A DNA stretch of 64,000 bases from Tubulanus polymorphus (GCF_964204645.1 NC_134026.1:310001-374000), one strand, 5' to 3'. Numbered from the stretch's first letter, positions 36,461 through 63,609 are shown. Made by a program: numbers and translations. The notes: generated by a model from the sequence alone, not told the origin.

Positions 36461-36854
36461 TCCTTTTAGAACAATGATTTATTTGTATTTCAATACTAAC
36501 TAAAAGATCAATTTAATGAAATATTTTATATTTGACTATCACTGTGTATATTCGAACCCCAGTGATTTCATGAGAATGGAATAACTGAAGGTCCAGGTTT
36601 TATCACCGAATACTCTTTGACACAATTACGTGGTCCACAACACAGATATAAATAGTGGTTATATAAAAGGCCCATGCTGTATATAGTGCACGCATAAAGA
36701 GCTTTTACTCGTAGTTGATATAGGCTTAGTAAATATGAAATGTGATTGAGAACGTTTTCTCATACTTTCTTTACCTTTTTTCTTGTAGTTTTTTTCAATT
36801 TTTATTAATTCAGTGAATTATCTACTCATTTTCAGTTGGTGTTTCACTATCATG

Positions 36855-37020
36855 GAATGCGATGAATAAAAAACAGTCTGAGTGTATTTTTCATATGATA
36901 TTTTCAGCGTCCCGTCGTATGAAATTTTTAATTTTTAATTTGATGTCATATCATGAAAATGTATGACTGAAAACATCATATGAAAAATACACTCAGATTG
37001 TTTTTCATTTATCTCGTTCC
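36855..37020. mobile_element. Fold-back MITE-like element
   Basis: AAAAACAGTCTGAGTGTATTTTTCATATGATATTTTCAG ... CTGAAAACATCATATGAAAAATACACTCAGATTGTTTTT are long reverse-complementary arms. Confidence 0.7.
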
Positions 37021-37493
37021 ATACAATACAGGACTCAGTTCCACAGATTGATTTGGATACAAGAATTTAAATACATATTTGTTGCATAACTGTGGAACTG
37101 GGACTTGTTAAATTGTGAGCATGATGTTTATGATTAATCACTAGTGCGTTTTGAACTAGATATTAAAACTTTGGTTTCAAGTTAACCTTAGTTTAGATTA
37201 GTTGGTTTTTGTTTAGTTATTTTAGTAATTTTCGCTGTTTATGAATTTGATTCGTTCCAGTTGATTTAAGTCTAATTTAGTTAAAGTTTTAGTTCATTTA
37301 GGTCAAGTTGATTAAGTTTTAACTATAGCTGTTAACTTAAATAAAGTGTAAACCTCTGATAAACTGAGGGTCAATTTATCTTATGATAAGTTACACTCGG
37401 GTATATTAATCAATAATCCCGTTTAAGATCTCCTTTTTTTATGTGGTTCGGAGATTTTCACTGAATAAAATAGTAACATCTTCTTAGAATGTG

Positions 37494-38093
37494 ATGAACT
37501 GAGGGTAAATTCATCATTGTTGAAATTACTCTCAGGATCATCATTAAAACAATGAATGAACTGAGGGTATATTTCATCATTGTTGAAATTACTCTCAGGA
37601 TCATCATTAACACAATGAATGAACTGAGGGTAAATTCATCATTGTTGAAATAAGTCTCAGGATCATCATTAAAACAATGAATGAACTGAGGGTAAATTCA
37701 TCATTGTTGAAATTACTCTCAGGATCATCATTAAAACAATGAATGAACTGAGGGTGAATTCATCATTGTTGAAATCACTCTCAGGATCATCATTAAAACA
37801 ATGAATGAACTGAGGGTAAATTCATCATTGTTGAAATCACTCTCAGGATCATCATTAAACAATGAATGAACTGAGGGTAAATTCATCATTGTTGAAATCA
37901 CTCTCAGGATCAGCATTAAAACAATGAATGAACTGAGGGTAAATTCACCATTGTTGAAATTACTCTCAGGATCATCATTAAAACAATGAATGAACTGAGG
38001 GTAAATTCATCATTGTTGAAATCACTCTCAGGATCATCATTAAAACAATGAATGAACTGAGGGTAAATTCATCATTGTTGAAATCACTCTCAG
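37494..38093. repeat. 62-bp minisatellite, ~9.5 copies, each with an internal hairpin
   Basis: Unit ATGAACTGAGGGTAAATTCATCATTGTTGAAATYACTCTCAGGATCATCATTAAAACAATGA. Confidence 0.95.
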
Positions 38094-39068
38094 TTCATTG
38101 AGGATATTTTAGCGTTAACACCAGTTTTAATTACCCCACTGTTTTCTTGTTATTGAAAGTAACATCACTAGTTGTAGAATAGATGATTAGGTTTTTTATT
38201 GTTCGATGAACTTGCAGTTAATTAGATTGATTAATAATACAATACTCTCAGGTCATTGAAACATAATCTTTAATGTTATCTTAATTTTAGGGATCTAGGG
38301 TTTTACGCTGAAATAGATTATAAATGAATGAAACAATGGAATTTTAAATCAGTATTTTTTCGTTACTGTCAGAGAACTTTTATTTAATTTTTAGGCTTTT
38401 CACTTTTTGGTGTCTCTAGATTCTAGTTTTTTTCTAAAATATTGTTGAAATTTTGTTGTGTTTTTTAATCGATTTTAAGCTTAAGTCCCAGCAGGCTAGT
38501 GTATTCGCTTTTTATCCGTTATTCGACTGGCAGAATAGTATTAAGATGGCTGACTGGTAGCTATTCTTGTTCGGCACTTTTACACAGTTTAGAAGTTTTT
38601 AAGGGAGGTTTCAAAGATTTCTCCAACATTTGATGTTTGATACCGATATTTATCCCCATCATTATTAGAAATATTGGGTTGCTTTAACTTAGTCATGATG
38701 TTTGATAATTGTTAGCATTGTCATAGGACACCACTTACATGGAATCATTCTTACCCCATTTTCTATTCTTCTCATCAGAGGTATTGAATTCATACAATTT
38801 TTCCATTAGTTTAATTATTGGTATTTATGCATATAACCGCAATCAATTGCATATTTGTAGCATTGGTTTTTGTTATGTTTACCGGGGGGGGGGGGGGGGC
38901 ATTAAATATCTAAATTGTCAGATTGTCAAGCATTTCACCGAGTGGGCAAGGTGTCCCTGCACCTCTAGTTTATATCTTATTTCACTGCTTTCAAGGTTCT
39001 CGTACACATTTCATATTTACATGCAGCTTTTTCATTCAATATATATCAATGCCATCCTCACTTGCCAG

Positions 39069-39569
39069 GTTTTAATTGTCGTCTGCCGAAGCTCATGCCA
39101 AGACAAACCCCGGTCGCAAACTCTTCATTGGTCTATTACGTTGTTCAAGATTGCTTGGGTAGTCAGGTTGCCACTGAGAGGCCACCAGTCTATATATCTA
39201 GCCAATCAGATGCATTGTTTTTCGCCGGCAGATTTGCTACACATCTGATTGACTAGATGTAAAGACTAGTGGCTGCTTAGCATCAACCCGTCAACCGAAG
39301 ATATCTTGGACAACGTAAGATACCAATTAAGGGTTTGCCACCAGGGTTTGTTTAAGCGTGAAATTCGGTGGGCGACAATAAAACCCTGGTGATTGAGGAT
39401 GTACATATGAACACACAAGAAGCCAAACTTAATAGGCAGCATTATTATTGGGAGGTGCACCTGGCCTAATATATCGCGCGGTAAAAACCACTCTATCCGT
39501 GGTTGTGTAGTACCAGTAATTGATGATCATCGAGTGAGTGATTGGCCTGGCCCAGTTATTCCATTCTGA
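39069..39569 (+). pseudogene. Decayed coding-like exon of unknown family
   Basis: GC-richer island after the acceptor CTTGCCAG; one frame reads protein-like through several in-frame stops (VLIVVCRSS...EDILDNVRYQLRVCHQGLFKREIRWATIKPW...DWPGPVIPF). No family recognised. Confidence 0.3.
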
Positions 39570-41349: not shown

Positions 41350-42225
41350 TCATTGGTTGCAGTTGTGAAAAATCATCTCATTGATTGTGCATACTTCCCC
41401 CTCACTGGTTGTCACTTCATTGGTTGCAGCTGAACAATCATCTCAATGATTGAGCTAATTTCCCCTCACTGGTTTGAAATATAATTCCCCCTCACTGGTT
41501 GCAGTTCTCTCCATTGGTTGCAGCTATGAACAATCATCTCATCGATTGTGCATACTTCCCCCTCACTGGTTGTCACTTCATTGGTTGCAGCTGAACAATC
41601 ATCTCAATGATTGAGCTAATTTCCCCTCACTGGTTTGAAATATAATTCCCCCTCACTGGTTGCAGTTCTCTCCATTGGTTGCAGCTATGAACAATCGTCT
41701 CATTGATTGTGCATACTTCCTCTCACTGGTTGCAGTTCACTCCATTGGTTGCAACTATGAACAATCATCTCATTGATTGTGCATACTTTCCCCTCACTGG
41801 TTGCAGTTCACTTGATTGGTTGCAGCTATGAACAATCATCTCATTGATTGTGCATACTTTCCTCTCACTGGTTGCAGTTCACTTGATCGGTTGCAGCTAT
41901 GAACAATCATCTCATCGATTGTGCATACTTTCCCCTCACTGGTTGCAGTTCACTTGATCGGTTGCAGCTATGAACAATCATCTCATTGATTGTGCATACT
42001 TTCCCCTCACTGGTTGCAGTTCACTCCATTGGTTGCAGCTATGAACAATCATCTCATTGATTGTGCATACTTTCCTCTCACTGGTTGCAGTTCACTCCAT
42101 TGGTTGCAGCTATGAACAATCATCTCATTGATTGTGCATACTTTCCCCTCACTGGTTGCAGTTCACTCCATTGGTTGCAGCTATGAACAATCATCTCATC
42201 GATTGTGCATACTTCCTCTCACTGC
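41350..42225. repeat. ~71-bp minisatellite with variant subunits
   Basis: Unit TCCCCTCACTGGTTGCAGTTCACTCCATTGGTTGCAGCTATGAACAATCATCTCATTGATTGTGCATACTT. Confidence 0.92.
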
Positions 42226-43420: not shown

Positions 43421-43424
43421 ATAA

Positions 43425-46400
43425 CTGATGGGCTCCTTTAATACTGCTGCTTGCTGCTGGGTGTTAATTGATACACTCTGTTTTGGGGTGATATTGAGTG
43501 CAGGAGTCTCCTCCTTCCTGCTTCAGCTGTCATGTAGAAACGTGACAAACAAACTGAATTGTCAGTGCGTTACAACACTGATGGGCTCCTTTAATACTGC
43601 TGCTTGCTGCCGGGTGTTAATTGATACACTCTGTTTTGGGGTGATATTGAGTGCAGGAGTCTCCTCCTTCCTGCTTCAGCTGTCATGTAGAAACGTGACA
43701 AACGAACTGAATTGTCAGTGCGTTACAACACTGATGACCTCCTTTAATACTGCTGCTTGCTGCTGGGTGTTAATTCTTACCACCTTTCATGAACTTCTTG
43801 AATTATTACATTAAACATTATTACAATAAGAATTATTACATTAAACATTATAACATCATGAATCATCCTCCTTAAATACTGCTGCTTGCTGCTGGCTCTG
43901 TTTTGGGGTGATATTGATCGCAGGAGTCTTCTCCTCCCTTCTTCAACTGTCATGTGGAAACGTGACAAACGAACTGAATTGTCAGTGCGTTACAACACTG
44001 ATGACCTCCTTTAATACTGCTGCTTGCTGCTGCGTGTTAATTAATACATTCTGTTTTGGGGTGATATTGAGTTCAGGAGTCTCCTCCTTCCTTCTTCAAC
44101 TGTCATGTAGAAACGTGACTAACAAACTGAATTGTCAGTGTGTTACAACACTGATGACCTCCCTTAATACTGCTGCTTGCTGCTGGGTGTTAATAAATAC
44201 ACTCTGTTCAGGGGTGATATTGAGTGCAGGAGTCTCCTCCTTCCTTCTTCAACTGTCATGTAGAAATGTGACAAACAAACTGAATTTTTAGTGTGGTACA
44301 ACACTGATGACCTCCTTAAATACTGCTGCTTGCTGCTGCGTGTTAATTAATACACTCTGTTATGGGGTGATATTGAGTTTTGGCGAGTTTTGCTCCCTGA
44401 TTATCTTTATTGCGACTTTACATTTTAAATGTATAAATATTCACAGCAGCTATCCATCGATAGCTTTGTGGTGGTTGAATCATTGAAATGTTACTGGTGT
44501 TGGTACATTGTATATATTGTAATATATGTCGGTGAAATGGGATTGATTATGTTTCCTGATCGTCCTTATTGCGACTTTACGTTTTAAATGTATAATATTC
44601 AAAACAGCTATCCATCGATAGCTTTGTGGTGGTTGAATCATTGAAATGTTACTGGTGTTGGTACATTGTATATATTGTAATATATGTCGGTGAAATGGGA
44701 TTGATCATGTTTCCTGATCATCCTTATTGCGACTTTACGTTTTAAATGTATAAATATTCAAAACAGCTATCCATCGATAGCTTTGTGGTGGTTGAATCTT
44801 TGAAATGTCGCTGGTGTTGGTACATTGTATAGATTGTAATATATGTCGGTGAAATGGGATTGATCATGTTTTGTGATCATCCTTATTGCGACTTAACGTT
44901 TTAAATGTATAAATATTCAAAACAGCTATCCATCGATAGCTTTGTGGTGGTTGAATCTTTGAAATGTCGCTGGTGTTGGTACATTGTATAGATTGTAATA
45001 TATGTCGGTGAAATTGGATTGATCATGTTTTGTGATCGTCCTTTTTGCGACTTTACGTTTTAAATGTATAAATATTCAAAACAGCTATCCATCGATAGCT
45101 TTGTGGTGGTTGAATCATTGAAATAATGCTGGTGTTGATTCTCTGTGTATACTGTATCAGCAAATATTATCACATAACGCATTTTAAAAGTGTTATACTC
45201 AAAGATGCTATATTTTGATAGCTTCACTTTGCTTCCTTGCACCTGAAGGTTGTTAACTGTCATATAGAAACGTGACAAACAAACTGAATTGTCAGAGTGT
45301 TACAAGACTGATGACCTCCTTTAATACTGCTGCTTGCTGCTGCGTGTTAATTAATACACTCTGTTTTGGGGTGATATTGAGTTCAAGAGTCTCCTCTTTC
45401 CTTCTTCAACTGTCATGTAGAAACGTGACAAAGGAACTGAATTGTCAGTGTGTTACATCACTGATGGCCTCCTTTAATACTGCTGCTTGCTGGTGGTGTT
45501 AATTCTTACCACCTTCCATGAACTTCTTGAATTATTATATTAAACATTATTACAATAAGAATTATTACATTAAACATTATAACATCATGAATCATCCTCC
45601 TTAAATACTGCTGCTTGCTGCTGGCTCTGTTTTGGGGTGATATTGATCGCAGGAGTCTTCTCCTTCCTTCTTCAACTGTCATGTAGAAACGTGACTAACA
45701 AACTGAATTTTCAGTGCGTTACAACACTGATGGGCTCCTTTAATACTGCTGCTTGCTGCTGGGTGTTAATTCTTACCACCTTCCATGAACTTCTTGAATT
45801 ATTACATTAAACATTATTACAATAAGAATTATTACATTAAACATTATAACATCATGAATCATCCTCCTTAAATACCGCTGCTTGCTGCTGGCTCTGTTTT
45901 GGGGTGATATTGAGTTCAGGAGTCTCCTCCTTCCTTCTTCAACTGTCATGTGGAAACGTGACAAACGAACTGAATTGTCAGTGCGTTACAACACTGATGA
46001 CCTCCTTTAATACTGCTGCTTGGTGCTGGGTGTTAATAAATACACTCTGTTCAGGGGGTGATATTGAGTGCAGGAGTCTCCTCCTTCCTTCTTCAACTGT
46101 CATGTAGAAACGTGACTAACAAACTGAATTGTCAGTGTGTTACAGCACTGATGACCTCCTTTAATACTGCTGCTTGCTGCTGGGTGTTAATAAATACACT
46201 CTGTTCAGGGGGTGATATTGAGTGCAGGAGTCTCCTCCTTCCTTCTTCAACTGTCATGTAGAAACGTGACTAACAAACTGAATTGTCAGTGTGTTACAGC
46301 ACTGATGACCTCCTTTAATACTGCTGCTTGCTGCTGGGTGTTAATAAATACACTCTGTTCAGGGGGTGATATTGAGTGCAGGAGTCTCCTCCTTCCTTCT

Positions 46401-49400
46401 TCAACTGTCATGTAGAAACGTGACAAACAAACTGAATTTTCAGTGTGGTACAACACTGATGACCTCCTTAAATACTGCTGCTTGCTGCTGCGTGTTAATT
46501 AATACACTCTGTTATGGGGTGATATTGAGTTTTGGTGAGTTTTGCTCCCTGATCATCTTTATTGCGACTTTACATTTTAAATGTATGAATATTCAAAACA
46601 GCTATCCATCGATAGCTTTGTGGTGGTTGAATCATTGAAATTTTACTGGTGTTGGTACATTGTATATATTGTAATATATGTCGGTGAAATGGGATTGATC
46701 ATGTTTCCTGATCATCCGTATTGCGACTTTACGTTTTAAATGTATAAATATTCAAAATAGCTATCCATCGATAGCTTTGTGGTGGTTGAATCATTGAAAT
46801 GTTACTGGTGTTGGTACATTGTATATATTGTAATATATGTCGGTGAAATGGGATTGATCATGTTTCCTGATCATCCTTATTGCGACTTTACGTTTTAAAT
46901 GTATAAATATTCAAAATAGCTATCCATCGATAGCTTTGTGGTGGTTGAATCATTGAAATGTTACTGGTGTTGGTACATTGTATATATTGTAATATATGTC
47001 GGTGAAATGGGATTGATCATGTTTCCTGATCGTCCTTATGCGACTTTACGTTTTAAATGTATAAATATTCAAAACAGCTATCCATCGATAGCTTTGTGGT
47101 GGTTGAATCATTGAAATGTTACTGGTGTTGGTACATTGTATATATTGTAATATATGTCGGTGAAATGGGATTGATCATGTTTTGTGATCATCCTTATTGC
47201 GACTTAACGTTTTAAATGTATAAATATTCAAAACAGCTATCCATCGATAGCTTTGTGGTGGTTGAATCTTTGAAATGTCGCTGGTGTTGGTACATTGTAT
47301 AGATTGTAATATATGTCGGTGAAATGGGATTGATCATGTTTTGTGATCATCCTTATTGCGACTTAACTTTTTAAATGTATAAATATTCAAAACAGCTATC
47401 CATCGATAGCTTTGTGGTGGTTGAATCTTTGAAATGTCGCTGGTGTTGGTACATTGTATAGATTGTAATATATGTCAGTGAAATGGGATTGATCATGTTT
47501 TGTGATCATCCTTATTGCGACTTTACGTTTTAAATGTATAAATATTCAAAACAGCTATCCATCGATAGCTTTGTGGTGGTTGAATCATTGAAATAATGCT
47601 GGTGTTGGTTCTGTGTATATATTTTGTAATATATGTCGGTGAAATGGGATTGATCATGTTTCCTGATCGTCCTTATGCGACTTTACGTTTTAAATGTATA
47701 AATATTCAAAACAGCTATCCATCGATAGCTTTGTGGTGGTTGAATCATTGAAATGTTACTGGTGTTGGTACATTGTATATATTGTAATATATGTCGGTGA
47801 AATGGGATTGATCATGTTTTGTGATCATCCTTATTGCGACTTAACGTTTTAAATGTATAAATATTCAAAACAGCTATCCATCGATAGCTTTGTGGTGGTT
47901 GAATCTTTGAAATGTCGCTGGTGTTGGTACATTGTATAGATTGTAATATATGTCGGTGAAATGGGATTGATCATGTTTTGTGATCATCCTTATTGCGACT
48001 TAACTTTTTAAATGTATAAATATTCAAAACAGCTATCCATCGATAGCTTTGTGGTGGTTGAATCTTTGAAATGTCGCTGGTGTTGGTACATTGTATAGAT
48101 TGTAATATATGTCAGTGAAATGGGATTGATCATGTTTTGTGATCATCCTTATTGCGACTTTACGTTTTAAATGTATAAATATTCAAAACAGCTATCCATC
48201 GATAGCTTTGTGGTGGTTGAATCATTGAAATAATGCTGGTGTTGGTTCTCTGTGTATACTGTATCAGCAAATATTATCACATTACGCATTTTAAAAGTGT
48301 TATACTCAAAGATGCTATTGTTTGATTGCTTCACTTTGGTTCCTTGCACCTGAAGGTTGTTAACTGTCATATAGAAACGTGACAAACAAACTGATTTGTC
48401 AGTGTGTTACAAGACTGATGACCTCCTTTAATACTGCTGCTTGCTGCTGCGTGTTAATTAATACACTCTGTTTTGGGGTGATATTAAGTTCAGGAGTCTC
48501 CTCTTTCCTTCTTCAACTGTCATGTAGAAACGTGACAAACAAACTGAATTGTCAGTGTGTTACATCACTGATGGCCTCCTTTAATACTGCTGCTTGCTGC
48601 TGGGTGTTAATTCTTACCACCTTCCATGAACTTCTTGAATTATTACATTAAACATTATTACAATAAGAATTATTACATTAAACATTATAACATCATGAAT
48701 CATCCTCCTTAAATACTGCTGCTTGCTGCTGGCTCTGTATTGAGGTGATATTGATCACAGGAGTCTTCTCCTTCCTTCTTCAACTGTCATGTGGAAACGT
48801 GACAAATGAACTGAATTGTCAGTGCGTTACAACACTGATGACCTCCTTTAATACTGCTGCTTGCTGCTGGGTGTAAATTCTTACCACCTTCCATGAACTT
48901 CTTGAATTATTACATCAAACATTATTACAATAAGAATTATTACATTAAACATTATAACATCATGAATCATCCTCCTCAAATACTGCTGCTTGCTGCTGGC
49001 TCTGTTTTGGGGTGATATTGAGTTCAGGAGTCTCCTCCTTCCTTCTTCAACTGTCATGTAGAAACATGACAAACGAACTGAATTGTCAGTGTGTTACAAC
49101 ACTGATGGACTCCTTTAATACTGCTGCTTGCTGCTGGGTGTAAATTCTTACCACCTTCCATGAACTTCTTGAATTATTACATCAAACATTATTACAATAA
49201 GAATTATTACATTAAACATTATAACATCATGAATCATCCTCCTCAAATACTGCTGCTTGCTGCTGGCTCTGTTTTGGGGTGATATTGAGTTCAGGAGTCT
49301 CCTCCTTCCTTCTTCAACTGTCATGTAGAAATGTGACTAACAATCTGAATTTTCAGTGTGGTACAACACTGATGACCTCCTTAAATACTGCTGCTTGGTG

Positions 49401-50230
49401 CTGGGTGTTAATTAATACACTCTGTTATGGGGTGATATTGAGTTTTGGCGAGTTTGCTCCCTGATCGTCCTTATTGCGACTTTACGTTTTAAATGTATAA
49501 ATATTCAAAACAGCTATCCATCGATAGCTTTGTGGTGGTTGAATCTTTGAAATTTCGCTGGTGTTGGTACATTGTATATATTGTAATATATGTCGGTGAA
49601 ATGGGATTGATCATGTTTCCTGATCGTCCTTATTGCGACTTAACGTTTTAAATGTATAAATATTCAAAGCAGCTATCCATCGATAGCTTTGTGGTTTTTG
49701 AATCTTTGAAATGTCGCTGGTGTTGGTTCTGTGTATATATTGTAATATATGCCGGTGAATTGGGATTGATTATGTTTCCTGATCGTCCTTATTGCGACTT
49801 ATTACGTTTTAAATGTATAAATATTCAAAACAGCTATCCATCGATAGCTTTGTGGTGGTTGAATCATTGAAATGCTACTGGTGTTGGTACATTGTATATA
49901 TTGTAATATATGTCGGTGAAATGGGATTGATCATGTTTCCTGATCATCCTTATTGCGACTTTACGTTTTAAATGTATAAATATTCAAAACAGCTATCCAT
50001 CGATAGCTTTGTGGTGGTTGAATCATTGAAATAATGCTGGTGTGGTTCTCTGTATATATTGTATCAGCAAATTATTATCACATTACTCATTTTAAAAGTG
50101 TTATACTCAAAGATGCTATTGTTTGATAGCTTCACTTTGGTTCCTTGCACCTGAAGGTTGTTATCTGTCATATAGAAACGTGACTAATGAACACAATTGT
50201 CAGTGTGTTACAACACTGATGACCTCCTTC
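43425..50230. repeat. Composite higher-order satellite: blocks of a 153/154-bp monomer and a 159-bp monomer plus linker, repeated three times
   Basis: A monomer period 153 (43428 to 43581); B monomer period 159 (46564 to 46723); linker at ~45140, ~48248, ~50047. B copy number is about 5, 11 and 4 in the three blocks. Confidence 0.95.
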
Positions 50231-51079: not shown

Positions 51080-52360
51080 CTGTTGTCAGCAGAGATCGTA
51101 GGAAATCTCCACCCCTCAAACAGAAAGTTCAAGATGATACCGAAAGTTTCTGAGGTTCTGAGAAATTTCGCTAAGTCAAGACTATAAATCAGGTAAAATA
51201 TATATTGCTATAAATTGTTTTGTAGATAAGAATTGAAATTTCTTTTTTTAAGAATTATTCATTTTTTGTGTACATTATAGTATTGAGCTTGTGGTTGGCT
51301 GTACAATATCAGATGACGGGAAGATCAGATCAGAGATGCTGAACAATTTCTTCTTTCAGTGTTTGTCTGTAGAAATCGAAGGTATCTGAGGAATCTCCAC
51401 ATCAAACAGAAAGTTCAAGAATTACTAAAAGTTGCTGGAGTTCTGAGCACTTTCTTTTTTAAGTCATAAGTCTGAATTGACTATAATCAGGTATAATTGA
51501 ACTTGATATGAATTTCATTGTAGGAACAGCAGACTTAATGAAGCTGGTTACTTTTATTCTATGTATTTCTGTTGTAGCCAGTGGTTTGTCTGTTTGTTGG
51601 TTGTTGGTAGAGAGGAAAGGAACACATCGGAGTTCACAAAGCGTTCAGCAAATTTCTCAAGGTCCAAGTCATGAGTCTGAATTGACTATAAATCAGGTAT
51701 AATTAAACCCGATATGAATTTCATGGTAGGAACAGCAGACTCAATGAAGCTGGTTACTTTTATTTCATGTATTTCTGTTGTAGCCAGTGGTTTGTCTGTT
51801 TGTTGTGGTCGTTGTTGGTAAAGACATGTAATACTAGAGGAAAGGGAAACATCAAAGTTCTGGAAGTGTTGAGCAAATTTCTCCAGGTCGATGTCGTGAC
51901 TCTGAATTGACTATAAATCAGGTATAGTTGAAATTTATCTTTGGTGAAGAGTCTTAAAAATGATATCATTATTCATATTTTGTGTTTTGTCATTGTAGTA
52001 TTGAGCTTGTGGTTGGCTGTAGAACATCAAACGGCAGGAAAAGATCAGATCAGAGATGCCGACCAATATCTCCATCAATTCGGGACTTTCAGTGATTGTT
52101 ACCCTCGAGTTAGCGCAGTTCCGTAGATGCTGACCAGTTTCTCCGTCAAATTTGGACTTTCAGTGTTTGTTACCGCTAGTTATCGTAGTTCCAGAGATGC
52201 CGACCAATTTCTCCGCCAAATTGGGACTTTCAGTGTTTGTTACCACGAGTTATCATAGTTCCAGAAATGCCGAACAATGTCTCCGTCAAATCAGGACTTT
52301 CAGTGTTTGTTACTGCGAGTTAGCCTAGTTCCAGAGATGCCAAACAATTTCTCTGAGGCT
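51080..52360. repeat. Nested local duplications (~205-bp duplicate, ~73-bp x4, GACTATAAATCAGGT x4)
   Basis: Repeated blocks at 51180, 51479, 51684, 51909 and 52050-52350. Confidence 0.8.
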
Positions 52361-53322
52361 GATGGCTTCAGGGATAGGTTGAATGTAAATACACATTGTA
52401 CATCTATTGGAAAATAAATATGAACTGATGGTTTGATTGGCTGGTTTGTTGTTGAATCTGATTGTGGGTTATTAATTACTGATGTGCTGCGACTTAGCGT
52501 TTTATATGCATACATTTCAAAGGGCTTCTCTTGTTTTTGTTGTGCTGGTTAAATTATTTTGTAAATGATAATTGAGGATGTCAAACTTTGGTTTAGAGTT
52601 TTGTTACAGTGATGAATGAATGCACTGTATATGTGGAGATTATGTACTTGTGACTGCGTTTGTTTTTGTAAATACATTTATTTTTTTTTAAATGATTGTT
52701 TTTATGTTGCATCTCATTCTGAGGATGTTAAACTCTTAACTCAAGATACTCGGTTTGCTCTGGACTTTGATTATTATATTGATGAATACATTGATTTTAT
52801 GGTGTTTGATTATCTGTTGAACTATTGTTTATGAATACCATTTGAACTACTAACCACTAGTTGTTTTAACATCAGTATCATTAATGGTCAGTTGTTCTCT
52901 ACAAATTATATGTGTTATTATTTCTTTATATAATGTACGGTGGACTCTCTTAACTAGAATCATTTCAAGTCCAGTCACTTGGAGTAATGATTTTCCAAGC
53001 TTACATCAACTTGGACATAAAGACATTGAACTATTGCATTGAAATTCTTTTATCTGCAGGTGACAATTATCACCTTGTCTTTATTGATTCGAGTTAGTCA
53101 AGTCTATTGTACATGGATTCTTTTTTCTCTGGAAGTGAATTAAATGAAACGAGACGACAGTTGAACCCCATTAGTACGATTGTGTTTAGGACGAAAACCG
53201 TTTATTACGATCAGATTTTCGGCATGTCCCGGCTAATTTACATCGATCCATATTTTGATAATACGACAATTTCACTTTCAACAATAAGATTTGTATTTAA
53301 CTAAGGATCCACTGTAAAACTG

Positions 53323-56300
53323 GAGTATCCCGGGTTCAAACCCATCAATTGCTGTGATTCAGAGTGGTCCTGATGGATAAAGGATGAACAGGGGTATCCC
53401 GGGTTCAAACCCATCAATTGCTGTGATTCAGAGTGGTCCTGATGGATAAAGGGTGAACAGGGGTATCCCGGGTTCAAACCCATCAATTGCTGTGATTCAG
53501 AGTGGTCCTGATGGATAAAGGATGAACAGGGGTGTACCGACCGTACAGTGCTGCCGCTATGCTCATCGTTAGCGGGATTTCCATACACTAACTAAAGTCA
53601 ACTCTGGCAATCGACGTACTGTCCAGTTGTACTCCGTGACCTTAGCTTGCCAGAGTTGACTAACGTTAGTGTATAAAAATTCCGCTAACGATGAGCATAG
53701 AGGCAGCACCGTACGGTAAAATGTTGATATCTTAACAAAAGTAATTACTGATACTGATTCAGAGAGGTCCTGATGCTGAATAGAGGATGTACAGGGGTGT
53801 CTCGATTTTTAACCCATCAATTGCTGTGATTCAGAGTGGTCCTGATGCTGAATAGAGGATGTACGGGGGTGTCTCGATTTTTAACACATCAATTGCTGTG
53901 ATTCAGAGTGGTCCTGATGCTGAATAGAGGATGTGCAGGGGTATCCCGGGTTCAAACCCATCAATTGCTGTGATTCAGAGTGGTCCTGAGGCTGAATAGA
54001 GGATGTACAGGGGTATCCCGGGTTCAAACCCATCAATTGCTGTGATTCAGAGTGGTCCTGATGAATAAAGGATGAACAGGGGTGTACCGACCGTACAGTG
54101 CTGCCGCTATGCTGATCGTTAGCGGGATTTTCATACACTAACTAAAGTCAACTTTGGCAATCGACGTGCTGTCCAGTTATACTCCGTGACCTTAGCTTGC
54201 CAGAGTTGACTAACGTAAGTGTATAAAAATTCCGCTAACGATGAGCATAGAGGCAGCACCGTACGGTAAAATGTTGATGTCTTAACAAAAGTAATTACTG
54301 ATACTGATTCAGAGCGGTCCTGATGCTGAATAGAGGATGTACAGGGGTGTCTCGATTTCTAACCCATCAATTGCTGTGATTCAGAGTGGTCCTGGTGGAT
54401 AACGGATGTACAGGGGTATCCCGGGTTCAAACCCATCAATTGCTGTGATTCAGAGTGGTCCTGATGCTGAATAGAGGATGAACAGGGGTATCGCGTGTTC
54501 AAACCCATCAATTGCTGTGATTCAGAGTGGTCCTGGTGGATAAAAGATGTACAGGGGTGTCCCGGGTTCAAACCCATCAATTGCTATGATTCAGAGTGGT
54601 CCTGATGCTGAATAGAGGATGTACGGGGGTGTCTCGGGTTCAAACCCAGTAATTACTGATACTGATTCAGAGTGGTCCTGATGCTGAATAGAGGATGAAC
54701 AGGGGTGTCTCGATTTCTAACCCATCAATTGCTATGATTCAGAGTGGTCCTGGTTGATAACGGATGTGCAAGGGTATCCCGTGTTCAAACCCATAAATTG
54801 CTGTGATTCAGAGTTGTCCTGATGGATAAAGGATGTACAGGGGTATCCCGGGTTCAAACCCATCAATTGCTGTGATTCAGAGTGGTCTTGATGGATAAAG
54901 GATGAATAGGGGTGTACCGACCGTACAGTGCTGCCGCTATGCTCATCGTTAGCGGGATTTTCATACACTAACTAAAGTCAACTCTTGCAATCGACGTGCT
55001 GCCGAGTTGTACTCCGTGACCTTAGCTTGCCAGGGTTGACTAACGTTAGTGTATAAAAATTCCGCTAACGATGAGTATAGAGGCAGCACCGTACGGTAAA
55101 ATGTTGATAACTGATTCAGAGCGGTACTGATGCTGAATAGAGGATGTACAGGGGTGTCCCGTGTTCAAACCCATCAATTGCTGTGATTCAGAGTGGTCCT
55201 GATGGATAGAGGATGTACAGGGTTATCCCGGGTTCAAACCCATCAATCGCTGTGATTAAGAGTGGTCCTGATGGATAAAGGATTAACAGGGGTATCCCAG
55301 GTTCAAACCCATCAATTGCTGTGATTCAGAGTGGTCCTGATGCTGAATAGAGGATGTACGGGGGTATCCCGGGTTCAAACCCATCAATTGCTGTGATTCA
55401 GAGTTGTCCTGATGGATAAAGGATGTACAGGGTTATCATGGGTTCAAACCCATCAATTGATGTGATTCAGAGTGGTCCTGATGCTGAATAGAGGATGTAC
55501 GGGGGTATCCCGGGTTCAAACTCATCAATTGATGTGATTCAGAGTGGTCCTGATGCTGAATAGAGGATGTACGGGGGTATCCCGGGTTCAAACCCATCAA
55601 TGGCTGTGATTCAGAGTGGTCCTGATGGATAAGGGTTTAACAGGGGTATCCCAGGTTCAAACCCATCAATTGCTGTGATTCAGAGTGGTCCTGATGCTGA
55701 ATAGAGGATGTACGGGGGTATCCCGGGTTCAAACCCATCAATTGCTGTGATTCAGAGTTGTCCTGATGGATAAAGGATGTACAGGGGTATCTCGGGTTCA
55801 AACCCATCAATTTCTGTGATTCAGAGTGGTCCTGATGCTGAATAGAGGATGAACAGGGGTATCCCGGGTTCAAACCCATCAATTGCTGTGATTCAGAGTG
55901 GTCCTGAGGCTGAATAGAGGATGTGCAGGGGTATCCCGTGTTCAAACCCATCAATTGCTGTGATTCAGAGTTGTCCTGATGGATAAAGGATGAACAGGGG
56001 TGTACCGACCGTACAGTGCTGCCGCTATGCTCATCGTTAGCGGGATTTTCATACACTGACTAAAGTCAACTCTGGCAATCGACGTGCTGTCCAGTTATAC
56101 TTCCGTGACCTTAGCTTGCCAGAGTTGACTAACGTTAGTGTATAAAAATTCCTCTAACGATGAGCATAGAGGCAGCACCATACGGTAAAATGTTGATAAC
56201 TGATTCAGAGTGGTCCTGATGCTGAATAGAGGATGTACGGGGGTGTCTCTGGTTCAAACCCTTCAATTGCTGTGATTCAGAGTGGACCTGATGCTGAATA

Positions 56301-59300
56301 GAGGATGTACGGGGGTGTCTCGGGTTCAAACCCATCAATTGCTGTGATTCAGAGTGGTCCTGATGGATAAAGGATGTACAGGGGTGTCCCGACCGTACAG
56401 TGCTGCCGCTATGCTCATCGTTAGCGGGATTTTCATACACTAACTAAAGTCAACTCTTGCAATCGACGTGCTGCCGAGTTGTACTCCGTGACCTTAGCTT
56501 GCCAGGGTTGACTAACGTTAGTGTATAAAAATTCCGCTAACGATGAGTATAGAGGCAGCACCGTACGGTAAAATGTTGATAACTGATTCAGAGCGGTACT
56601 GATGCTGAATAGAGGATGTACAGGGGTGTCCCGTGTTCAAACCCATCAATTGCTGTGATTCAGAGTGGTCCTGATGGATAGAGGATGTACGAGGGTGTCC
56701 CGTGTTCAAACCCATCAATTGCTATGATTCAGAGTGGTCCTGATGCTGAATAGAGGATGTACAGGGGTGTCTCGGGTTTAAACCCAGTAATTACTGATAC
56801 TGATTCAGAGAGGTCCTGATGTTGAATAGAGGATGTACAGGGTTATCCCGGGTTCAAACCCATCAATTGCTGTGATTCAGAGTGGTCCTGATGCTGAATA
56901 GAGGATGTACGGGGGTATCCCGGGTTCAAACCCATCAATTGCTGTGATTCAGAGTTGTCCTGATGGATAAAGGATGTACAGGGGGTATCTCGGGTTCAAA
57001 CCCATCAATTGCTGTGATTCAGAGTGGTCCTGATGCTGAATAGAGGATGTACGGGGGTGTCCCGGGTTCAAACCCATCAATTGCTTTGATTCAGAGTTGT
57101 CCTGATGGATAAAGGATGTACAGGGGTATCCCGGGTTCAAACCCATCAATTTCTGTGATTCAGAGTGGTCCTGATGCTGAATAGAGGATGAACAGGGGTA
57201 TCCCGGGTTCAAACCCATCAATTGCTGTGATTCAGAGTGGTCCTGAGGCTGAATAGAGGATGTGCAGGGGTATCCCGTGTTCAAACCCATCAATTGCTGT
57301 GATTTAGAGTGGTCCTGATGGATAAAGGATGAACAGGGGTGTACCGACCGTACAGTGCTGCCGCTATGCTCATCGTTAGCGGGATTTCCATACACTAACT
57401 AAAGTCAACTCTGGCAATCGACGTGCTGTCCAGTTGTACTCCGTGACCTTAGCTTGCCAGAGTTGACTAACGTTAGTGTATAAAAATTCCTCTAACGATG
57501 AGCATAGAGGCAGCACCGTACGGTAAAATGTTGATAACTGATTCAGAGCGGTACTGATGCTGAATAGAGGATGTACAGGGGTATCCCGTGTTCAAACCCA
57601 TCAATTGCTGTGATTCAGAGTGGTCCTGATGCTGAATAGAGGATGTACAGGGGTATCCCGGGTTCAAACCCATCAATTTCTGTGATTCAGAGTGGTCCTG
57701 ATGCTGAATAGAGGATGAACAGGGGTATCCCGGGTTCAAACCCATCAATTGCTGTGATTCAGAGTGGTCCTGAGGCTGAATAGAGGATGTGCAGGGGTAT
57801 CCCGTGTTCAAACCCATCAATTGCTGTGATTTAGAGTGGTCCTGATGGATAAAGGATGAACAGGGGTGTACCGACCGTACAGTGCTGCCGCTATGCTCAT
57901 CGTTAGCGGGATTTCCATACACTAACTAAAGTCAACTCTGGCAATCGACGTGCTGTCCAGTTGTACTCCGTGACCTTAGCTTGCCAGAGTTGACTAACGT
58001 TAGTGTATAAAAATTCCTCTAACGATGAGCATAGAGGCAGCACCGTACGGTAAAATGTTGATAACTGATTCAGAGCGGTACTGATGCTGAATAGAGGATG
58101 TACAGGGGTATCCCGTGTTCAAACCCATCAATTGCTGTGATTCAGAGTGGTCCTGATGCTGAATAGAGGATGTACAGGGGTATCCCGGGTTCAAACCCAT
58201 CAATTGCTGTGATTCAGAGTGGTCCTGATGGATAAAGGATTAACAGGGGTATCCCAGGTTCAAACCCATCAATTGCTGTGATTCAGAGTGGTCCTGATGC
58301 TGAATAGAGGATGTACGGGGGTATCCCGGGTTCAAACCCATCAATTGCTGTGATTCAGAGTGGTCCTGATGGATAAAGGATTAACAGGGGTATCCCAGGT
58401 TCAAACCCATCAATTGCTGTGATTCAGAGTGGTTCTGATGCTGAATAGAGGATGAACAGGGGTATCCCGGGTTCAAACCCATCAATTGCTGTGATTTAGA
58501 GTGGTCCTGATGGATAAAGGATGAACAGGGGTGTACCGACCGTACAGTGCTGCCGCTATGCTCATCGTTAGCGGGATTTCCATACACTAACTAAAGTCAA
58601 CTCTGGCAATCGACGTGCTGTCCAGTTGTACTCCGTGACCTTAGCTTGCCAGAGTTGACTAACGTTAGTGTATAAAAATTCCTCTAACGATGAGCATAGA
58701 GGCAGCACCGTACGGTAAAATGTTGATAACTGATTCAGAGCGGTACTGATGCTGAATAGAGGATGTACAGGGGTATCCCGTGTTCAAACCCATCAATTGC
58801 TGTGATTCAGAGTGGTCCTGATGCTGAATAGAGGATGTACAGGGGTATCCCGGGTTCAAACCCATCAATTGCTGTGATTCAGAGTGGTCCTGGTGCTGAA
58901 TAGAGGATGTACAGGGGTGTCCCGTGTTCAAACCCATCAATTGCTGTGATTCAGATTGGTCCTGATGGATAGAGGATGTACGGGGGTGTCCCGTGTTCAA
59001 ACCCATCAATTGCTGTGATTCAGAGTGGACCTGATGCTGAATAGAGGATGTACGGGGGTGTCTCGGGTTCAAACCTATCAATTGCTGTGATTCAGAGTGG
59101 TCCTGATGGATAAAGGATGTACAGGGGTTTCCCGACCGTACAGTGCTGCCGCTATGCTCATCGTTAGCGGGATTTTCATACACTAACTAAAGTCAACTCT
59201 TGCAATCGACGTGCTGCCGAGTTGTACTCCGTGACCTTAGCTTGCCAGGGTTGACTAACGTTAGTGTATAAAAATTCCGCTAACGATGAGTATAGAGGCA

Positions 59301-62300
59301 GCACCGTACGGTAAAATGTTAATAACTGATTCAGAGCGGTACTGATGCTGAATAGAGGATGTACAGGGGTGTCCCGTGTTCAAACCCATCAATTGCTGTG
59401 ATTCAGAGTGGTCCTGATGGATAAAGGATGAACAGGGGTGTACCGACCGTACAGTGCTGCCGCAATGCTCATCGTTAGCGGGATTTTCATACACTAACTA
59501 AAGTCAACTCTGGCAATCGACGTGCTGTCCAGTTATACTCCGTGACCTTTGCTTGCCAGAGTTGACTAACGTTAGTGTATAAAAATTCCTCTAACGATGA
59601 GTTTAGAGGCAGCACCATACGGTAAAATGTTGATAACTGATTCAGAGTGGTCCTGATGCTGAATAGAGGATGTACGGGATGTCTCTGGTTCAAACCCTTC
59701 AATTGCTGTGATTCAGAGTGGACCTGATGCTGAATAGAGGATGTACGGGGGTGTCTCGGGTTCAAACCCATCAATTGCTGTGATTCAGAGTGGTCCTGAT
59801 GGATAAAGGATGTACAGGGGTGTCCCGACCGTACAGTGCTGCCGCTATGCTCATCGTTAGCGGGATTTTCATACACTAACTAAAGTCAACTCTGGCAATC
59901 GACGTGCTGCCGAGTTGTACTCCGTGACCTTAGCTTGCCAGGGTTGACTAACGTTAGTGTATAAAAATTCCGCTAACGATGAGTATAGAGGCAGCACCGT
60001 ACGGTAAAATGTTGATAACTGATTCAGAGTGGTCCTGATGCTGAATAGAGGATGTACAGGGGTGTCCCGTGTTCAAACCCATCAATTGCTATGATTCAGA
60101 GTGGTCCTGATGCTGAATAGAGGATGTACAGGGGTGTCTCGGGTTTAAACCCAGTAATTACTGATACTGATTCAGAGTCGTCCTGATGCTGAATAGAGGA
60201 TGAACAGGGGTGTCTCGGGTTTAAACCCAGTAATTACTGATACTGATTCAGAGTGGTCCTGATGCTGAATAGAGGATGTACAGGGTTATCCCGGGTTCAA
60301 ACCCATCAATTGCTGTGATTCAGAGTGGTCCTGATGGATAAAGGATTAACAGGGGTATCCCAGGTTCAAACCCATCAATTGCTGTGATTCAGAGTGGTCC
60401 TGATGCTGAATAGAGGATGTACGGGGGTATCCCGGGTTCAAACCCATCAATTGCTGTGATTCAGAGTGGTCCTGATGGATAAAGGATTAACAGGGGTATC
60501 CCAGGTTCAAACCCATCAATTGCTGTGATTCAGAGTGGTCCTGATGGATAAAGGATGAACAGGGGTATCCCGGGTTCAAACCCATCAATTGCTGTGATTC
60601 AGAGTGGTCCTGATGGATAAAGGATGAACAGGGGTGTACCGACCGTACAGTGCTGCCGCTATGCTGATCGTTAGCGGGATTTTCATACACTAACTAAAGT
60701 CAACTCTGGCAATCGACGTGCTGTCCAGTTGTACTCCGTGACCTTAGCTTGCCAGAGTTGACAAACGTTAGTGTATAAAAATTCCTCTAACGATGAGCAT
60801 AGAGGCAGCACCGTACGGTAAAATGTTGATAACTGATTCAGAGCGGTACTGATGCTGAATAGAGGATGTACAGGCGTATCCCGTGTTCAAATCCATCAAT
60901 TGCTGTGATTCAGAGTGGTCCTGATGCTGAATAGAGGATGAACAGGGGTATCCCGGGTTCAAACCCATCAATTGCTGTGATTTAGAGTGGTCCTGATGGA
61001 TAAAGGATGAACAGGGGTGTACCGACCGTACAGTGCTGCCGCTATGCTCATCGTTAGCGGGATTTCCATACACTAACTAAAGTCAACTCTGGCAATCGAC
61101 GTGCTGTCCAGTTGTACTCCGTGACCTTAGCTTGCCAGAGTTGACTAACGTTAGTGTATAAAAATTCCTCTAACGATGAGCATAGAGGCAGCACCGTACG
61201 GTAAAATGTTGATAACTGATTCAGAGCGGTACTGATGCTGAATAGAGGATGTACAGGGGTATCCCGTGTTCAAACCCATCAATTGCTGTGATTCAGAGTG
61301 GTCCTGATGCTGAATAGAGGATGTACAGGGGTATCCCGGGTTCAAACCCATCAATTGCTGTGATTCAGAGTGGTCCTGATGGATAAAGGATTAACAGGGG
61401 TATCCCAGGTTCAAACCCATCAATTGCTGTGATTCAGAGTGGTCCTGATGCTGAATAGAGGATGTACGGGGGTATCCCGGGTTCAAACCCATCAATTGCT
61501 GTGATTCAGAGTGGTCCTGATGGATAAAGGATTAACAGGGGTATCCCAGGTTCAAACCCATCAATTGCTGTGATTCAGAGTGGTCCTGATGGATAAAGGA
61601 TGAACAGGGGTATCCCGGGTTCAAACCCATCAATTGCTGTGATTCAGAGTGGTCCTGATGGATAAAGGATGAACAGGGGTGTACCGACCGTACAGTGCTG
61701 CCGCTATGCTGATCGTTAGCGGGATTTTCATACACTAACTAAAGTCAACTCTGGCAATCGACGTGCTGTCCAGTTGTACTCCGTGACCTTAGCTTGCCAG
61801 AGTTGACAAACGTTAGTGTATAAAAATTCCTCTAACGATGAGCATAGAGGCAGCACCGTACGGTAAAATGTTGATAACTGATTCAGAGCGGTACTGATGC
61901 TGAATAGAGGATGTACAGGCGTATCCCGTGTTCAAATCCATCAATTGCTGTGATTCAGAGTGGTCCTGATGCTGAATAGAGGATGTACGGGGGTATCCCG
62001 GGTTCAAACCCATCAATTGCTGTGATTCAGAGTGGTCCTGAGGCTGAATAGAGGATGTGCAGGGGTATCCCGTGTTCAAACCCATCAATTGCTGTGATTC
62101 CGAGTTGTCCTGATGGATAAAGGATGTACAGGGGTGTCCCGGGTTCAAACCCATCAATTGCTGTGATTCAGAGTGGTCCTGAGGCTGAATAGAGGATGTG
62201 CAGGGGTATCCCGGGTTCAAACCCATCAATTGCTGTGATTCAGAGTGGTCCTGATGGATAAAGGATGAACAGGGGTGTACCGACCGTACAGTGCTGCCGC

Positions 62301-62353
62301 TATGCTCATCGTTAGCGGGATTTTCATACACTAACTAAAGTCAACTCTGGCAA
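53323..62353. repeat. 9-kb composite array of 69/72-bp tRNA-like units interleaved with a ~178-bp fold-back element
   Basis: Unit TCAGAGTGGTCCTGATG(GATAA|CTGAATAG)AGGATGWACAGGGGTRTCCCGGGTTCAAACCCATCAATTGCTGTGAT, roughly 85-90 copies by length estimate. Fold-backs start at 53540, 54090, 54920, 56008, 56392, 57347, 57874, 58539, 59135, 59446, 59828, 60642, 61025, 61687, with a half copy at 62283. Confidence 0.97.
53540..53717. mobile_element. MITE-like fold-back element (first of 14 full copies)
   Basis: ~71-bp arms ACCGTACAGTGCTGCCGCTATGCTCATCGTTAGCGG...GTCAACTCTGGCAA and TTGCCAGAGTTGAC...CCGCTAACGATGAGCATAGAGGCAGCACCGTACGGT around a ~36-nt loop. CCGTA...TACGG|TA ends resemble Tc1/mariner-pogo termini. 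Confidence 0.75.
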
Positions 62354-62467: not shown

Positions 62468-62621
<154 letters not shown>

Positions 62622-62958: not shown

Positions 62959-63117
62959 CAGTTAACCTCGCCTTACTCAGATTTTCCAAGAACTCGCAAA
63001 AAATGAAATCATTTTTCTGACCTACGAACGCATTTCCTATCCTTAACTTGAACTTTTGCTAAGCTCGGACAAATTTTGCTGGTCCCAGTTCGTCCCGAGT
63101 TAGGGCGAGGTTTACTG
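62959..63117. mobile_element. Tc1/mariner-pogo-type MITE
   Basis: TA|CAGTTAACCTCGCCTTACTC ... GAGTTAGGGCGAGGTTTACTG|CA. Confidence 0.7.
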
Positions 63118-63494: not shown

Positions 63495-63609
63495 CAGTAG
63501 ACTCTGCTTGCTTCAGATCTTGTAGGTGTAAATTCCAAGGCAGTCTGAACAGGGATGGAGGGTTAAGAAAATCTGTAGTATATTGTCCGGGGCTAAACAG
63601 AGTCTACTG
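63495..63609. mobile_element. Tc1/mariner-pogo-type MITE with intact TA TSD
   Basis: TA|CAGTAGACTCTG ... CAGAGTCTACTG|TA, a perfect 12-bp TIR; the same right end recurs at ~30925-30936. Confidence 0.8.

Follow-up and report, generated by a model that had tools for sequence, protein, structure and literature searches.

A composite satellite of B-box-bearing units and periodic long foldbacks in a Tubulanus ribbon worm

Satellite DNA derived from SINEs is built of monomers of about 70-290 nt that may carry the promoter box B, and in snakes one such satellite, sSat3, is found at many loci, with between a few and hundreds of units at each (PMC10702118). The same source reports that the amphibian tandem repeat PolIII/TAN is transcribed in vitro. 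Among inverted-repeat elements, a transposon of the mariner family has been connected with the ant MITE IRE-130 (Palomeque et al. 2006, according to PMC2581405), and non-autonomous TcMar families of Anolis begin with CCGTA or CYGTA and have TA duplications, one family being likened to a Tc2-related frog element (PMC3014272). The array analyzed here belongs to a composite satellite that is spread through the genome of a Tubulanus ribbon worm and numbers hundreds of hairpins. Its probable origin is the capture of one foldback MITE, resembling Tc1/mariner elements, by a B-box-bearing satellite, after which both were amplified together in irregular higher-order repeats.

The stretch of DNA analyzed (the window, 64,000 nucleotides) holds the array at 53323-62353 on the plus strand. 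Parsing of this irregular higher-order repeat gave 77 full units and one leading partial unit, 14 foldbacks and a left arm standing alone; every part has the same orientation, and 15 segments bear a hairpin. Full units measure 72 bp (n=48; for example 53899-53970), 69 bp (n=23; 53355-53423), 76 bp (n=4; 54587-54662), 70 bp (n=1) or 71 bp (n=1). A preliminary description had reported tRNA-length units of 69 and 72 bp in runs of 2 to 12; these two lengths do dominate, but runs range from 1 to 12, with 2, 4, 8, 12, 2, 10, 4, 6, 5, 1, 2, 8, 2, 6 and 5 full units preceding the successive hairpins. Its statement that the foldback sits at a fixed unit position was borne out, as 15 of 15 hairpins are placed identically after a 69-type 5' half-unit. 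Exact duplications of 654, 628, 566, 458 and 422 bp occur within the array, and one hairpin segment is present in five identical copies. The right end is the lone left arm (62283-62353, plus strand), which terminates exactly at the arm/loop border; the left end falls inside a unit and has no arm. Open frames in the array are repeat-derived only, and the long head-to-tail succession of non-coding monomers is satellite DNA. No similarity was found between the unit sequence and the foldback arms.

Each foldback consists of 71-bp arms and a 36-bp loop. The 14 full fold-backs of about 178 bp, with arms of about 71 bp in one orientation, and the partial copy announced earlier were all recovered: 14 copies of 178 bp (one of them 179 bp) and the lone left arm. 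In copy 1 the left arm (53540-53610) begins A-CCGTA, the loop occupies 53611-53646, and the right arm (53647-53717) ends TACGG-T followed by A, which places a TA on the right side. A 22-bp tail (53718-53739) then leads from the foldback into the 3' part of a 76-bp unit; it has its long form in copies 1 and 2 and is shortened in the remaining 12. Copies 2 to 14, likewise on the plus strand, lie at 54090-54267, 54920-55097, 56008-56186 (copy 4, with one extra base in the loop), 56392-56569, 57347-57524, 57874-58051, 58539-58716, 59135-59312, 59446-59623, 59828-60005, 60642-60819, 61025-61202 and 61687-61864. These hairpins are 94-100% alike (mean 97%), and one copy gave a folding energy of -106.5 kcal/mol (z -15.7), with 0 of 200 shuffles equally stable. 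Arm pairing reaches 63 of 71 positions in the majority sequence and 59-63 in individual copies, and this short, non-coding, 178-bp inverted repeat is MITE-like in structure.

The ends of the foldback read CCGTA...TACGG, and every array copy is flanked by TA at the right and GA at the left. A TA target-site duplication on both sides is not visible in the array, which samples one ancestral junction; there, 11 nt were lost and the 22-bp tail was gained. The terminal motif common to the foldback and Anolis TcMar-N4, -N6 and -N13 comprises five bases only. Long loose ends were present at the outer arm end in 23 contigs of set X1 (median 255 nt, agreement 0.42), diverse flanks as solo foldback copies would give, and the outer arm shows extra read depth. 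Neither a solo foldback with both flanks nor an autonomous partner was seen, and the window contains a lone 17-bp match to the arm tip at 21372-21388.

The layout was then compared with read set X5, which comprises 1,934 Mb of raw DNA reads from another sample and study than the window. The structure first described held in this independent sample, where the same junctions are present: unit-to-left-arm joints in 685 reads (three listed joints), left-arm-to-loop joints in 758 reads, unit-to-unit joints, and unbroken depth across right arm, tail and unit. Since raw reads of another sample show the same layout, it is not an assembly artefact. The joint 53801 -> 53740, with about 14 letters between, is carried by 1,864 reads and makes the 76-bp form the commonest unit in the reads. 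Summed depth was at most 2,013 for the loop, 2,480-2,844 for the tail, at most 5,911 for the arm (pooling both arms, which map to one place) and at most 15,621 for the unit; the unit-to-tail ratio of 6.3 compares with 6.1 in the window (92 unit 5' halves for 15 hairpins). Scaled by the published genome size (1C of 313-358 Mb; PMC8468679) rather than by measured single-copy depth, the family amounts to about 330-530 hairpins and 2,500-2,900 units per genome, or roughly 0.08% of the genome. Of 19,804 reads on the family, 211 are 99% or more alike and 9,551 are 90-95% alike; set against window hairpins that are 94-100% alike, this argues for many arrays, each locally homogenized. High copy number and local homogenization are those of a satellite. 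The reads also lean to the paired state at three mismatches fixed in the array, the other letter accounting for 14% at 53710, 80% at 53681 and 77% at 53675 (sums over X5 reads, with 50% expected if the mismatch were general), so this array goes back to a copy that had decayed further from a foldback with fuller pairing. The fixed mismatches at 53701 and 53662-53664 are frequent in the reads too.

The preliminary description proposed a possible Pol III hairpin-RNA cassette as a source of siRNAs against dispersed MITEs. In such a cassette the unit upstream of each hairpin would recruit TFIIIC and Pol III, and the transcript would run via the half-unit into the foldback, to be diced into small RNAs. 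Its B box stood up in part. The 11-nt consensus GGTTCRANNCC is found in 49 of 77 units (GGTTCAAACCC at 53402-53412, plus strand, is an example) and the 9-nt core in 69 of 77, and the motif exceeds chance, arising in 33-57 of 20,000 shuffles per monomer (0.2-0.3% each). The core is intact in the unit just upstream of the hairpin, 69 nt before the arm, in 15 of 15 cases, which speaks for a cassette; the B box is absent from all 15 hairpin-bearing half-units. The A-box-like motif said to occur in most units did not hold: the exact form TGGTCCTGATGG (for example at 53365-53376, plus strand) is confined to 15 of 77 full units, is conserved no better than background, and fails two strict A-box patterns, which matched 0 of 77 units. 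A third, lax pattern (like the strict ones, a consensus) was matched by 23 of the 77 units and by 14 of the 15 half-units. Nor do the units form the cloverleaf of a tRNA gene. ARAGORN made no tRNA call at its default threshold, and at -ps80 it made none for two real monomers, compared with 136-187 of 400 shuffles in which the B box was kept; at relaxed thresholds shuffles keeping only the B box match or beat the monomers, and the tRNA-likeness reduces to those 11 nt. Rfam searches returned no tRNA at the gathering score in the whole window or at E<=10 in 53300-54400. Outside the array the window holds two lone B-box matches (24454 and 29729), unrelated to the unit, and a window search found no parent SINE or tRNA. 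Furthermore, a variant common in the reads, GGGTTCGAACCC, is simply palindromic, and the motif may therefore have a source other than tRNA.

Termination signals and conservation bear on the same proposal. As described earlier, most units lack T4 on the plus strand (75 of 77, with T4 in two), and the left arm is polymorphic, with GATTTTC in 10 of 15 and GATTTCC in 5 of 15. The five arms without T4 would favor a cassette; in the other ten, TTTT lies 37 nt inside the arm, ahead of any possible fold (for example at 54128-54131, plus strand), and TTTT lowers Pol III read-through (PMC8223928). No plus-strand T run follows the right arm to end a cassette, and the T3 allele breaks a pair, four of its five carriers being identical recent duplicates. 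Among 13 arm alleles in 14 copies, 12 break the majority pair and one is the pairing allele kept by 6 copies, leaving 0 compensatory changes. Conservation of the boxes does not exceed that elsewhere in the unit, one of the outcomes that the preliminary description took to count against it (variable columns 14 of 23 in the boxes and 25 of 46 outside them; Fisher p=0.80, at low power). An intact core is present in 69 of 77 units where random columns would give 53.5 (P=0.12), and in 41 of 48 distinct units (P=0.15), which is non-significant yet leans towards constraint. All these conservation tests are of low power, as the array copies are recent duplicates; within that limit, neither unit nor hairpin appears, from its sequence, to show signs of retention for an RNA-making job. 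The cassette could still draw on a hairpin predicted to be very stable as RNA and on the canonical B-box forms among the read variants, where B-box-breaking forms occur as well. Some amphibian tRNA-related tandem repeats are transcribed (PMC10702118), and a natural tRNA promoter is joined to a hairpin in gammaherpesvirus TMERs (PMC8223928). With its B box above chance and the A box, the hairpin unit's B box, conservation, compensation and the left-arm TTTT all against it, the cassette is a weakly supported reading, and we regard it as improbable. About as improbable is that the arrays serve as TFIIIC-bound boundary or clustering elements with the hairpin as a passenger. Extra-TFIIIC sites, which bind TFIIIC but not Pol III, have a B box without a valid A box, as these units do; the abundance of the units in the genome and the somewhat raised retention of the core would suit such a role. 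However, 4 of the 7 invariant B-box positions are variable, and the B box is not where the unit is best preserved: of 60 windows of the same shape, 9 are intact as often or more often (the best of them overlaps in part the parsing anchor, which missed no unit).

Two further readings in the preliminary description agree best with the data: its third option, in which a unit with a Pol III motif and a MITE amplify in tandem as a composite, and its own refuting case of a neutral satellite with a captured MITE. In the history that we favor, the 69-76-bp monomer would go back to the region of a tRNA, or of a tRNA-type SINE head, that contains box B, as judged from one motif, and the foldback would be a Tc1/mariner (Tc2-like) non-autonomous element, as its CCGTA...TACGG ends and right-hand TA suggest. 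A single capture event, in which a 76-bp unit exchanged its 11-nt B box for the foldback and the 22-bp tail, would account for the one hairpin position in 15 of 15 cases and for the reads that join the arm ends to the same loop and unit. Slippage and unequal exchange then probably drove the joint multiplication of the two, with no selection for an RNA product; the exact internal duplications and the five identical hairpin segments point to such tandem turnover. Later spread as irregular higher-order repeats would have been accompanied by local homogenization within each array. The hairpin may also be prone to breakage. That would account for the array's end at the arm/loop border, which is equally compatible with the end of a mobile element. 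Alternatively, the repeating module of right arm, tail, units and left arm could itself be a non-autonomous mobile element and the array its head-to-tail concatemer, the units being the element's central tandem repeats and the hairpin either two element ends meeting or a stem-loop origin nicked by a rolling-circle enzyme of Helitron/Helentron type. The right end of the array, precisely at the inner edge of an arm, agrees with this, as do two contigs from one sample (record 11 of X2 and record 19 of X3) whose match starts at exactly that point, next to 74 nt of other sequence. The 936 loose ends at the inner arm end in X5 lead to one and the same loop, with an agreement of 0.79 that allows a minority of unique flanks, but most reads join the arms by the identical 36-bp loop, and it is at the outer end of the arm that the X1 contigs have their long, diverse flanks. 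The armless left end of the array and the variable number of units between hairpins also speak against a mobile module. Helitron-type elements have A/T-flanked TC...CTRR ends and short subterminal repeats, neither of which we recognized by eye. The literature describes elements whose conserved ends enclose central tandem arrays, as well as tandem arrays of truncated Helitrons and composites of MITEs with arrays (PMC12628747; PMC4079207), but on balance we consider a mobile module unlikely and capture of a foldback MITE by a satellite the probable origin.

Measured against described systems, a 69-76-bp monomer with box B resembles that of a SINE-derived satellite, and a close counterpart is snake sSat3 (Vassetzky et al. 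2023, PMC10702118), a tandem monomer of about 67-70 nt with the promoter box B. The parent SINE of sSat3 is known, whereas none was found for the present unit, and the account of sSat3 mentions no foldback insert, the word "inverted" having 0 occurrences in the main text of PMC10702118. The amphibian repeats PolIII/TAN, OAX/satellite I, Rana/polIII and Hy/polIII are also tandem repeats with tRNA-related sequence; as described in PMC10702118, they differ in measuring about 200-360 nt where a length is given and in having mostly recognizable tRNA similarity, and that account does not mention a periodic long hairpin. TMERs of gammaherpesvirus 68, in which an internal Pol III promoter precedes a hairpin RNA, would be the analogue of a cassette, but in them A boxes and a B box accompany a tRNA-like fold (PMC8223928), in contrast to an array with no valid A box or cloverleaf and with TTTT in its arm. 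On the foldback side, Anolis TcMar-N4, -N6 and -N13 share the CCGTA or CYGTA ends, the adjoining TA, a non-coding sequence and a length of 168-661 bp, although their inverted repeats span 22-25 bp (PMC3014272) rather than 70-71 bp, the similarity ends after five bases, and the array has no left TA. Many copies of the 130-bp MITE IRE-130 lie inside Messor ant satellite DNA, much as the foldback lies inside this array, but the account in PMC2581405 does not mention a Pol III motif in that satellite. Finally, inverted-repeat elements and tandem repeats have been co-amplified, as here, in Xenopus (Xstir-Xmix and miDNA4), in Drosophila virilis (Tetris/TIR-220) and in the Helentron-borne repeats of oyster; as those composites are described, the element either contains the tandem repeats or is their source, whereas in this ribbon worm the foldback lies inside the repeat.

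Parsing of the array at 53323-62353 (+ strand) yielded 77 full units of 69-76 bp and one leading partial unit, among which are set 14 foldbacks of 178 bp each (one of 179 bp), with 71-bp arms and a 36-bp loop. The array closes with a solitary left arm, cut precisely where its loop would have started, and all parts share one orientation. The 14 hairpins and half copy in a single orientation reported in the preliminary description were thus reproduced, as was the fixed position of the hairpin within the unit: all 15 copies stand behind a half-unit of the 69-bp type, which points to a single capture event. The runs of units are irregular, as had been described, but their range was corrected from 2-12 to 1-12 full units ahead of each hairpin. 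Relative to the 76-bp monomer, the foldback and a 22-bp tail occupy the exact place of the 11-nt B box. In the majority sequence 63 of the 71 arm positions pair, and folding of one hairpin copy gave z = -15.7. Scarcity of TTTT in the units (2/77 on the + strand) and polymorphism of the left arm, where 10 of the 15 copies read GATTTTC and the other 5 GATTTCC, also held. A (TA)74 microsatellite lies at 62471-62619, 117 bp past the right end of the array.

The units had been called tRNA-like, and of this description only the B box survived. Its 11-nt consensus is present in 49 of 77 units and its 9-nt core in 69, and the 11-mer occurred in 33 and 57 of 20,000 shuffled monomers. The claimed A box was found in none of the 77 units by two strict consensus patterns, while a lax pattern matched 23. 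Over the whole window, ARAGORN at its default threshold detected no tRNA gene and Rfam gave no match at gathering score; two Rfam matches at E<=10 within 53300-54400, to CRISPR-DR61 and SCARNA7, were both at chance level and were dismissed. Relaxed ARAGORN returned 9 calls on the array at -ps80 and 87 at -ps70. We rejected these as tRNA evidence because shuffles that kept only the B box were called equally or more often: at -ps80 two real monomers gave no call, against 136 and 187 of 400 such shuffles. The relaxed search also calls the window's 159-bp array 8-10 times. Folding of the monomer gave no signal (z -1.8 and +0.4), and the array units do not classify as tRNA genes. A tRNA or SINE ancestry of the monomer is likely but falls short of proof, because a common read variant, GGGTTCGAACCC, is a perfect palindrome as well as a perfect B box. 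The window yielded no parent of the monomer; two isolated B-box matches, at 24454 and 29729, were discarded as relatives, being devoid of an A box and dissimilar both to the unit and to each other.

The foldback arms start with CCGTA and finish with TACGG, flanked by TA on the right and GA on the left. In Anolis (PMC3014272), non-autonomous Tc1/mariner families begin with CCGTA or CYGTA and carry TA duplications, and one such family is compared to a Tc2-related element. Since the likeness amounts to just five bases and half a target site, the Tc1/mariner superfamily may be taken as a lead only; no double TA is seen in the array, so the foldback stays short of formal Tc1/mariner MITE status. 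Signs of solo foldback copies came from 23 contigs of sequencing run X1 whose loose ends at the outer arm end are long (median 255 nt) and agree poorly (0.42), from an arm read depth that is higher in the outer than in the inner part, and from the outer 17 bp of the arm, found alone at 21372-21388 (0 matches in 100 shuffles). This lone tip lies between two divergent genes, some 160 bp ahead of where SepSecS starts, and its likeness does not extend further; it is the leftover tip of an element or, alternatively, a promoter motif to which the end of the arm bears a resemblance. A 26-nt arm pattern had no match in metagenome contigs, a result uninformative for an animal repeat.

The SepSecS gene itself occupies 17615-21215 (-). 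A 58-residue stretch of it has 93% identity to Tubulanus polymorphus P0001, and none of the other 119 matches listed, of 141, exceeds 76%; seven single-exon matches to P0001 reach 89-100% identity, and an eighth spans an intron. T. polymorphus or a near palaeonemertean relative is accordingly the likely host, and a bivalve origin was set aside. Nested short inverted repeats of 14 and 30 bp occur at 20909-21020 (first SepSecS intron), and a gene at 21890-22447 (+), whose first long frame is acidic, stands head to head with SepSecS.

Four of the ten sequencing runs listed (the contig sets X1, X2 and X3, and X5, raw DNA reads from another sample and study) were aligned to 53611-53826, which comprises loop, right arm, tail and unit. 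X5 holds 12.9 million reads (1,934 Mb), 19,804 of which aligned, with summed depths of up to 2,013 over the loop, 2,480-2,844 over the tail, up to 5,911 over the arm (both arms map to one place) and up to 15,621 over the unit. Given the 1C values of 313 and 358 Mb reported for T. polymorphus (PMC8468679), these depths correspond to approximately 330-530 hairpins and 2,500-2,900 units per genome, a family of about 0.08% of the genome, although the copy numbers depend on those 1C values; a genome of 850 Mb would raise them about 2.5-fold. The window holds about 3-4% of the family. The unit-to-hairpin ratio was 6.3 in X5 versus 6.1 in the window, and all window junctions were recovered in X5, in agreement with the structure first described. 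The unit-to-left-arm junction was found in at least 685 reads (three joints among those listed) and the left-arm-to-loop junction in at least 758 joints, while 936 loose ends at the inner arm end have the loop as their majority sequence (agreement 0.79); these counts cover the best-supported rows, with, for example, 451 further loose-end rows outside them. The most frequent unit-to-unit joint among those listed runs from 53801 back to 53740 (1,864 reads, about 14 letters between), which indicates that the main monomer of the family is the 76-bp form, rare in the window (4/77). Only 211 aligned reads have at least 99% identity and 9,551 fall at 90-95%, whereas the window hairpins average 97%, suggesting that the family consists of many arrays, each locally homogenised.

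The boxes are no more conserved than the rest of the unit (14/23 box versus 25/46 other columns variable, p = 0.80), the pattern that the preliminary description had associated with a neutral satellite. Across the 77 units the B-box core is variable in 4 of its 7 columns; the 69 units with an intact core, against 53.5 expected for random columns, lean to constraint without reaching significance (P = 0.12). The 14 hairpins carry 13 arm alleles, 12 of which break a majority pair (4 of these leave a G-U pair in the + strand RNA), and the remaining one is a pairing allele retained in 6 copies; none of the 13 represents a compensatory change. At three of the eight majority mismatches in the window arms (53710, 53681, 53675) the reads lean paired, implying that the window array derives from a more decayed copy; asymmetry at 53701 and 53662-53664 is also frequent in the reads. 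Suffix comparison revealed exact internal repeats of 654, 628, 566, 458 and 422 bp, with one hairpin segment occurring five times unchanged. Because the copies are recent duplicates, the selection tests have low power.

By the tests run, the feature is a satellite. We consider it reasonably probable that a box-B satellite first took up a single foldback MITE and that the resulting composite then multiplied as irregular higher-order repeats, a spread that slippage and unequal exchange would have driven, as nested exact duplications and general knowledge of satellites suggest. The main rival, which takes the module itself for a mobile element and the array for a concatemer of it, appears unlikely to us. 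It accords with the array end falling exactly on the inner arm end and with two contigs from one sample (X2 record 11, 430 nt; X3 record 19, 481 nt) whose match starts exactly there. In these contigs the arm match (53647-53722) reaches 5 bases past the outer end and 74 nt lie beside the inner end; they may represent solo copies whose loop differs, or else genuine ends of an element. A version in which every hairpin marks two element ends meeting is lowered by the loop common to most reads.

The preliminary interpretation as a whole was partly supported, its headline claim of a natural Pol III hairpin-RNA cassette array weakly so. In favour of the cassette are an intact B-box core 69 nt ahead of each of the 15 hairpins, the lack of terminators in the units and the stability of the hairpin. 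Nevertheless, we judge the reading quite improbable: a valid A box is absent, the hairpin-bearing unit is missing its B box, no T run follows the right arm, and in 10 of 15 copies TTTT, which reduces Pol III read-through (PMC8223928), stands 37 nt into the left arm. There is likewise no sign of maintained arm pairing, and the allele with only three Ts disrupts a pair and is carried in 4 of 5 cases by identical duplicates; its distinguishing letter (53676) appears in 16% of X5 arm reads, which puts it in no more than roughly one third of left arms. In the boldest form, equally improbable, the captured foldback MITE downstream of tandem B-box units would have turned into several hundred Pol III hairpin cassettes that amplify themselves across the genome, a natural shRNA array producing small RNAs against its own transposon family, in which the four-T and three-T alleles of the left arm would switch single cassettes off and on. 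That the array might act as a TFIIIC boundary seems, if anything, slightly more remote; neither this nor the cassette has positive functional evidence.

Mixed arrays seem to have been built more than once by this genome, as a second composite tandem region at 43424-50063 alternates 153-, 267- and 159-bp repeat blocks over 6.6 kb. Short satellites occur at 6987-7678, 37494-38093, 41351-42224 and 52051-52353, with units of 29, 62 (partly palindromic), 65-71 and 70 bp. By eye, two small inverted-repeat elements (62959-63117 and about 63495-63609), which start with CAGT and have TA on at least one side, look like ordinary MITE-like insertions. Unrelated foldbacks lie at 39053-39401 (160-bp arms, 77%) and 36852-37022 (56-bp arms, 89%), and weak MAM-domain matches under the Pfam cut-off at 604-969 (-) and 4937-5311 (+).

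On the most likely reading, capture of a MITE by a box-B satellite, the array would be a clear case of two-part satellite birth. Listings of the open-access literature, together with the papers cited here, showed neither this family nor its exact layout, and included no paper describing satellites from the phylum Nemertea. Box-B satellites, known from snakes, would be extended to a spiralian, and the roughly 400 inverted repeats of 71 bp that a genome carries, almost identical to one another, offer a natural test of hairpin decay, breakage and homogenisation. Should small RNAs be found, the array would count as endogenous Pol III hairpin DNA of a sort that, within that literature, is new to cellular genomes. 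The array works like several published systems. Snake sSat3 is a tandem 67-nt unit that includes box B from a SINE head (PMC10702118); the present array is at most a candidate sSat, no parent SINE having been found in the window. IRE-130 is a MITE-like element of 130 bp with many copies within ant satellite DNA (PMC2581405), and further parallels are Tetris (PMC4079207) and the MITE-array composites and Helitron-borne repeats reviewed in PMC12628747 and PMC9659126.
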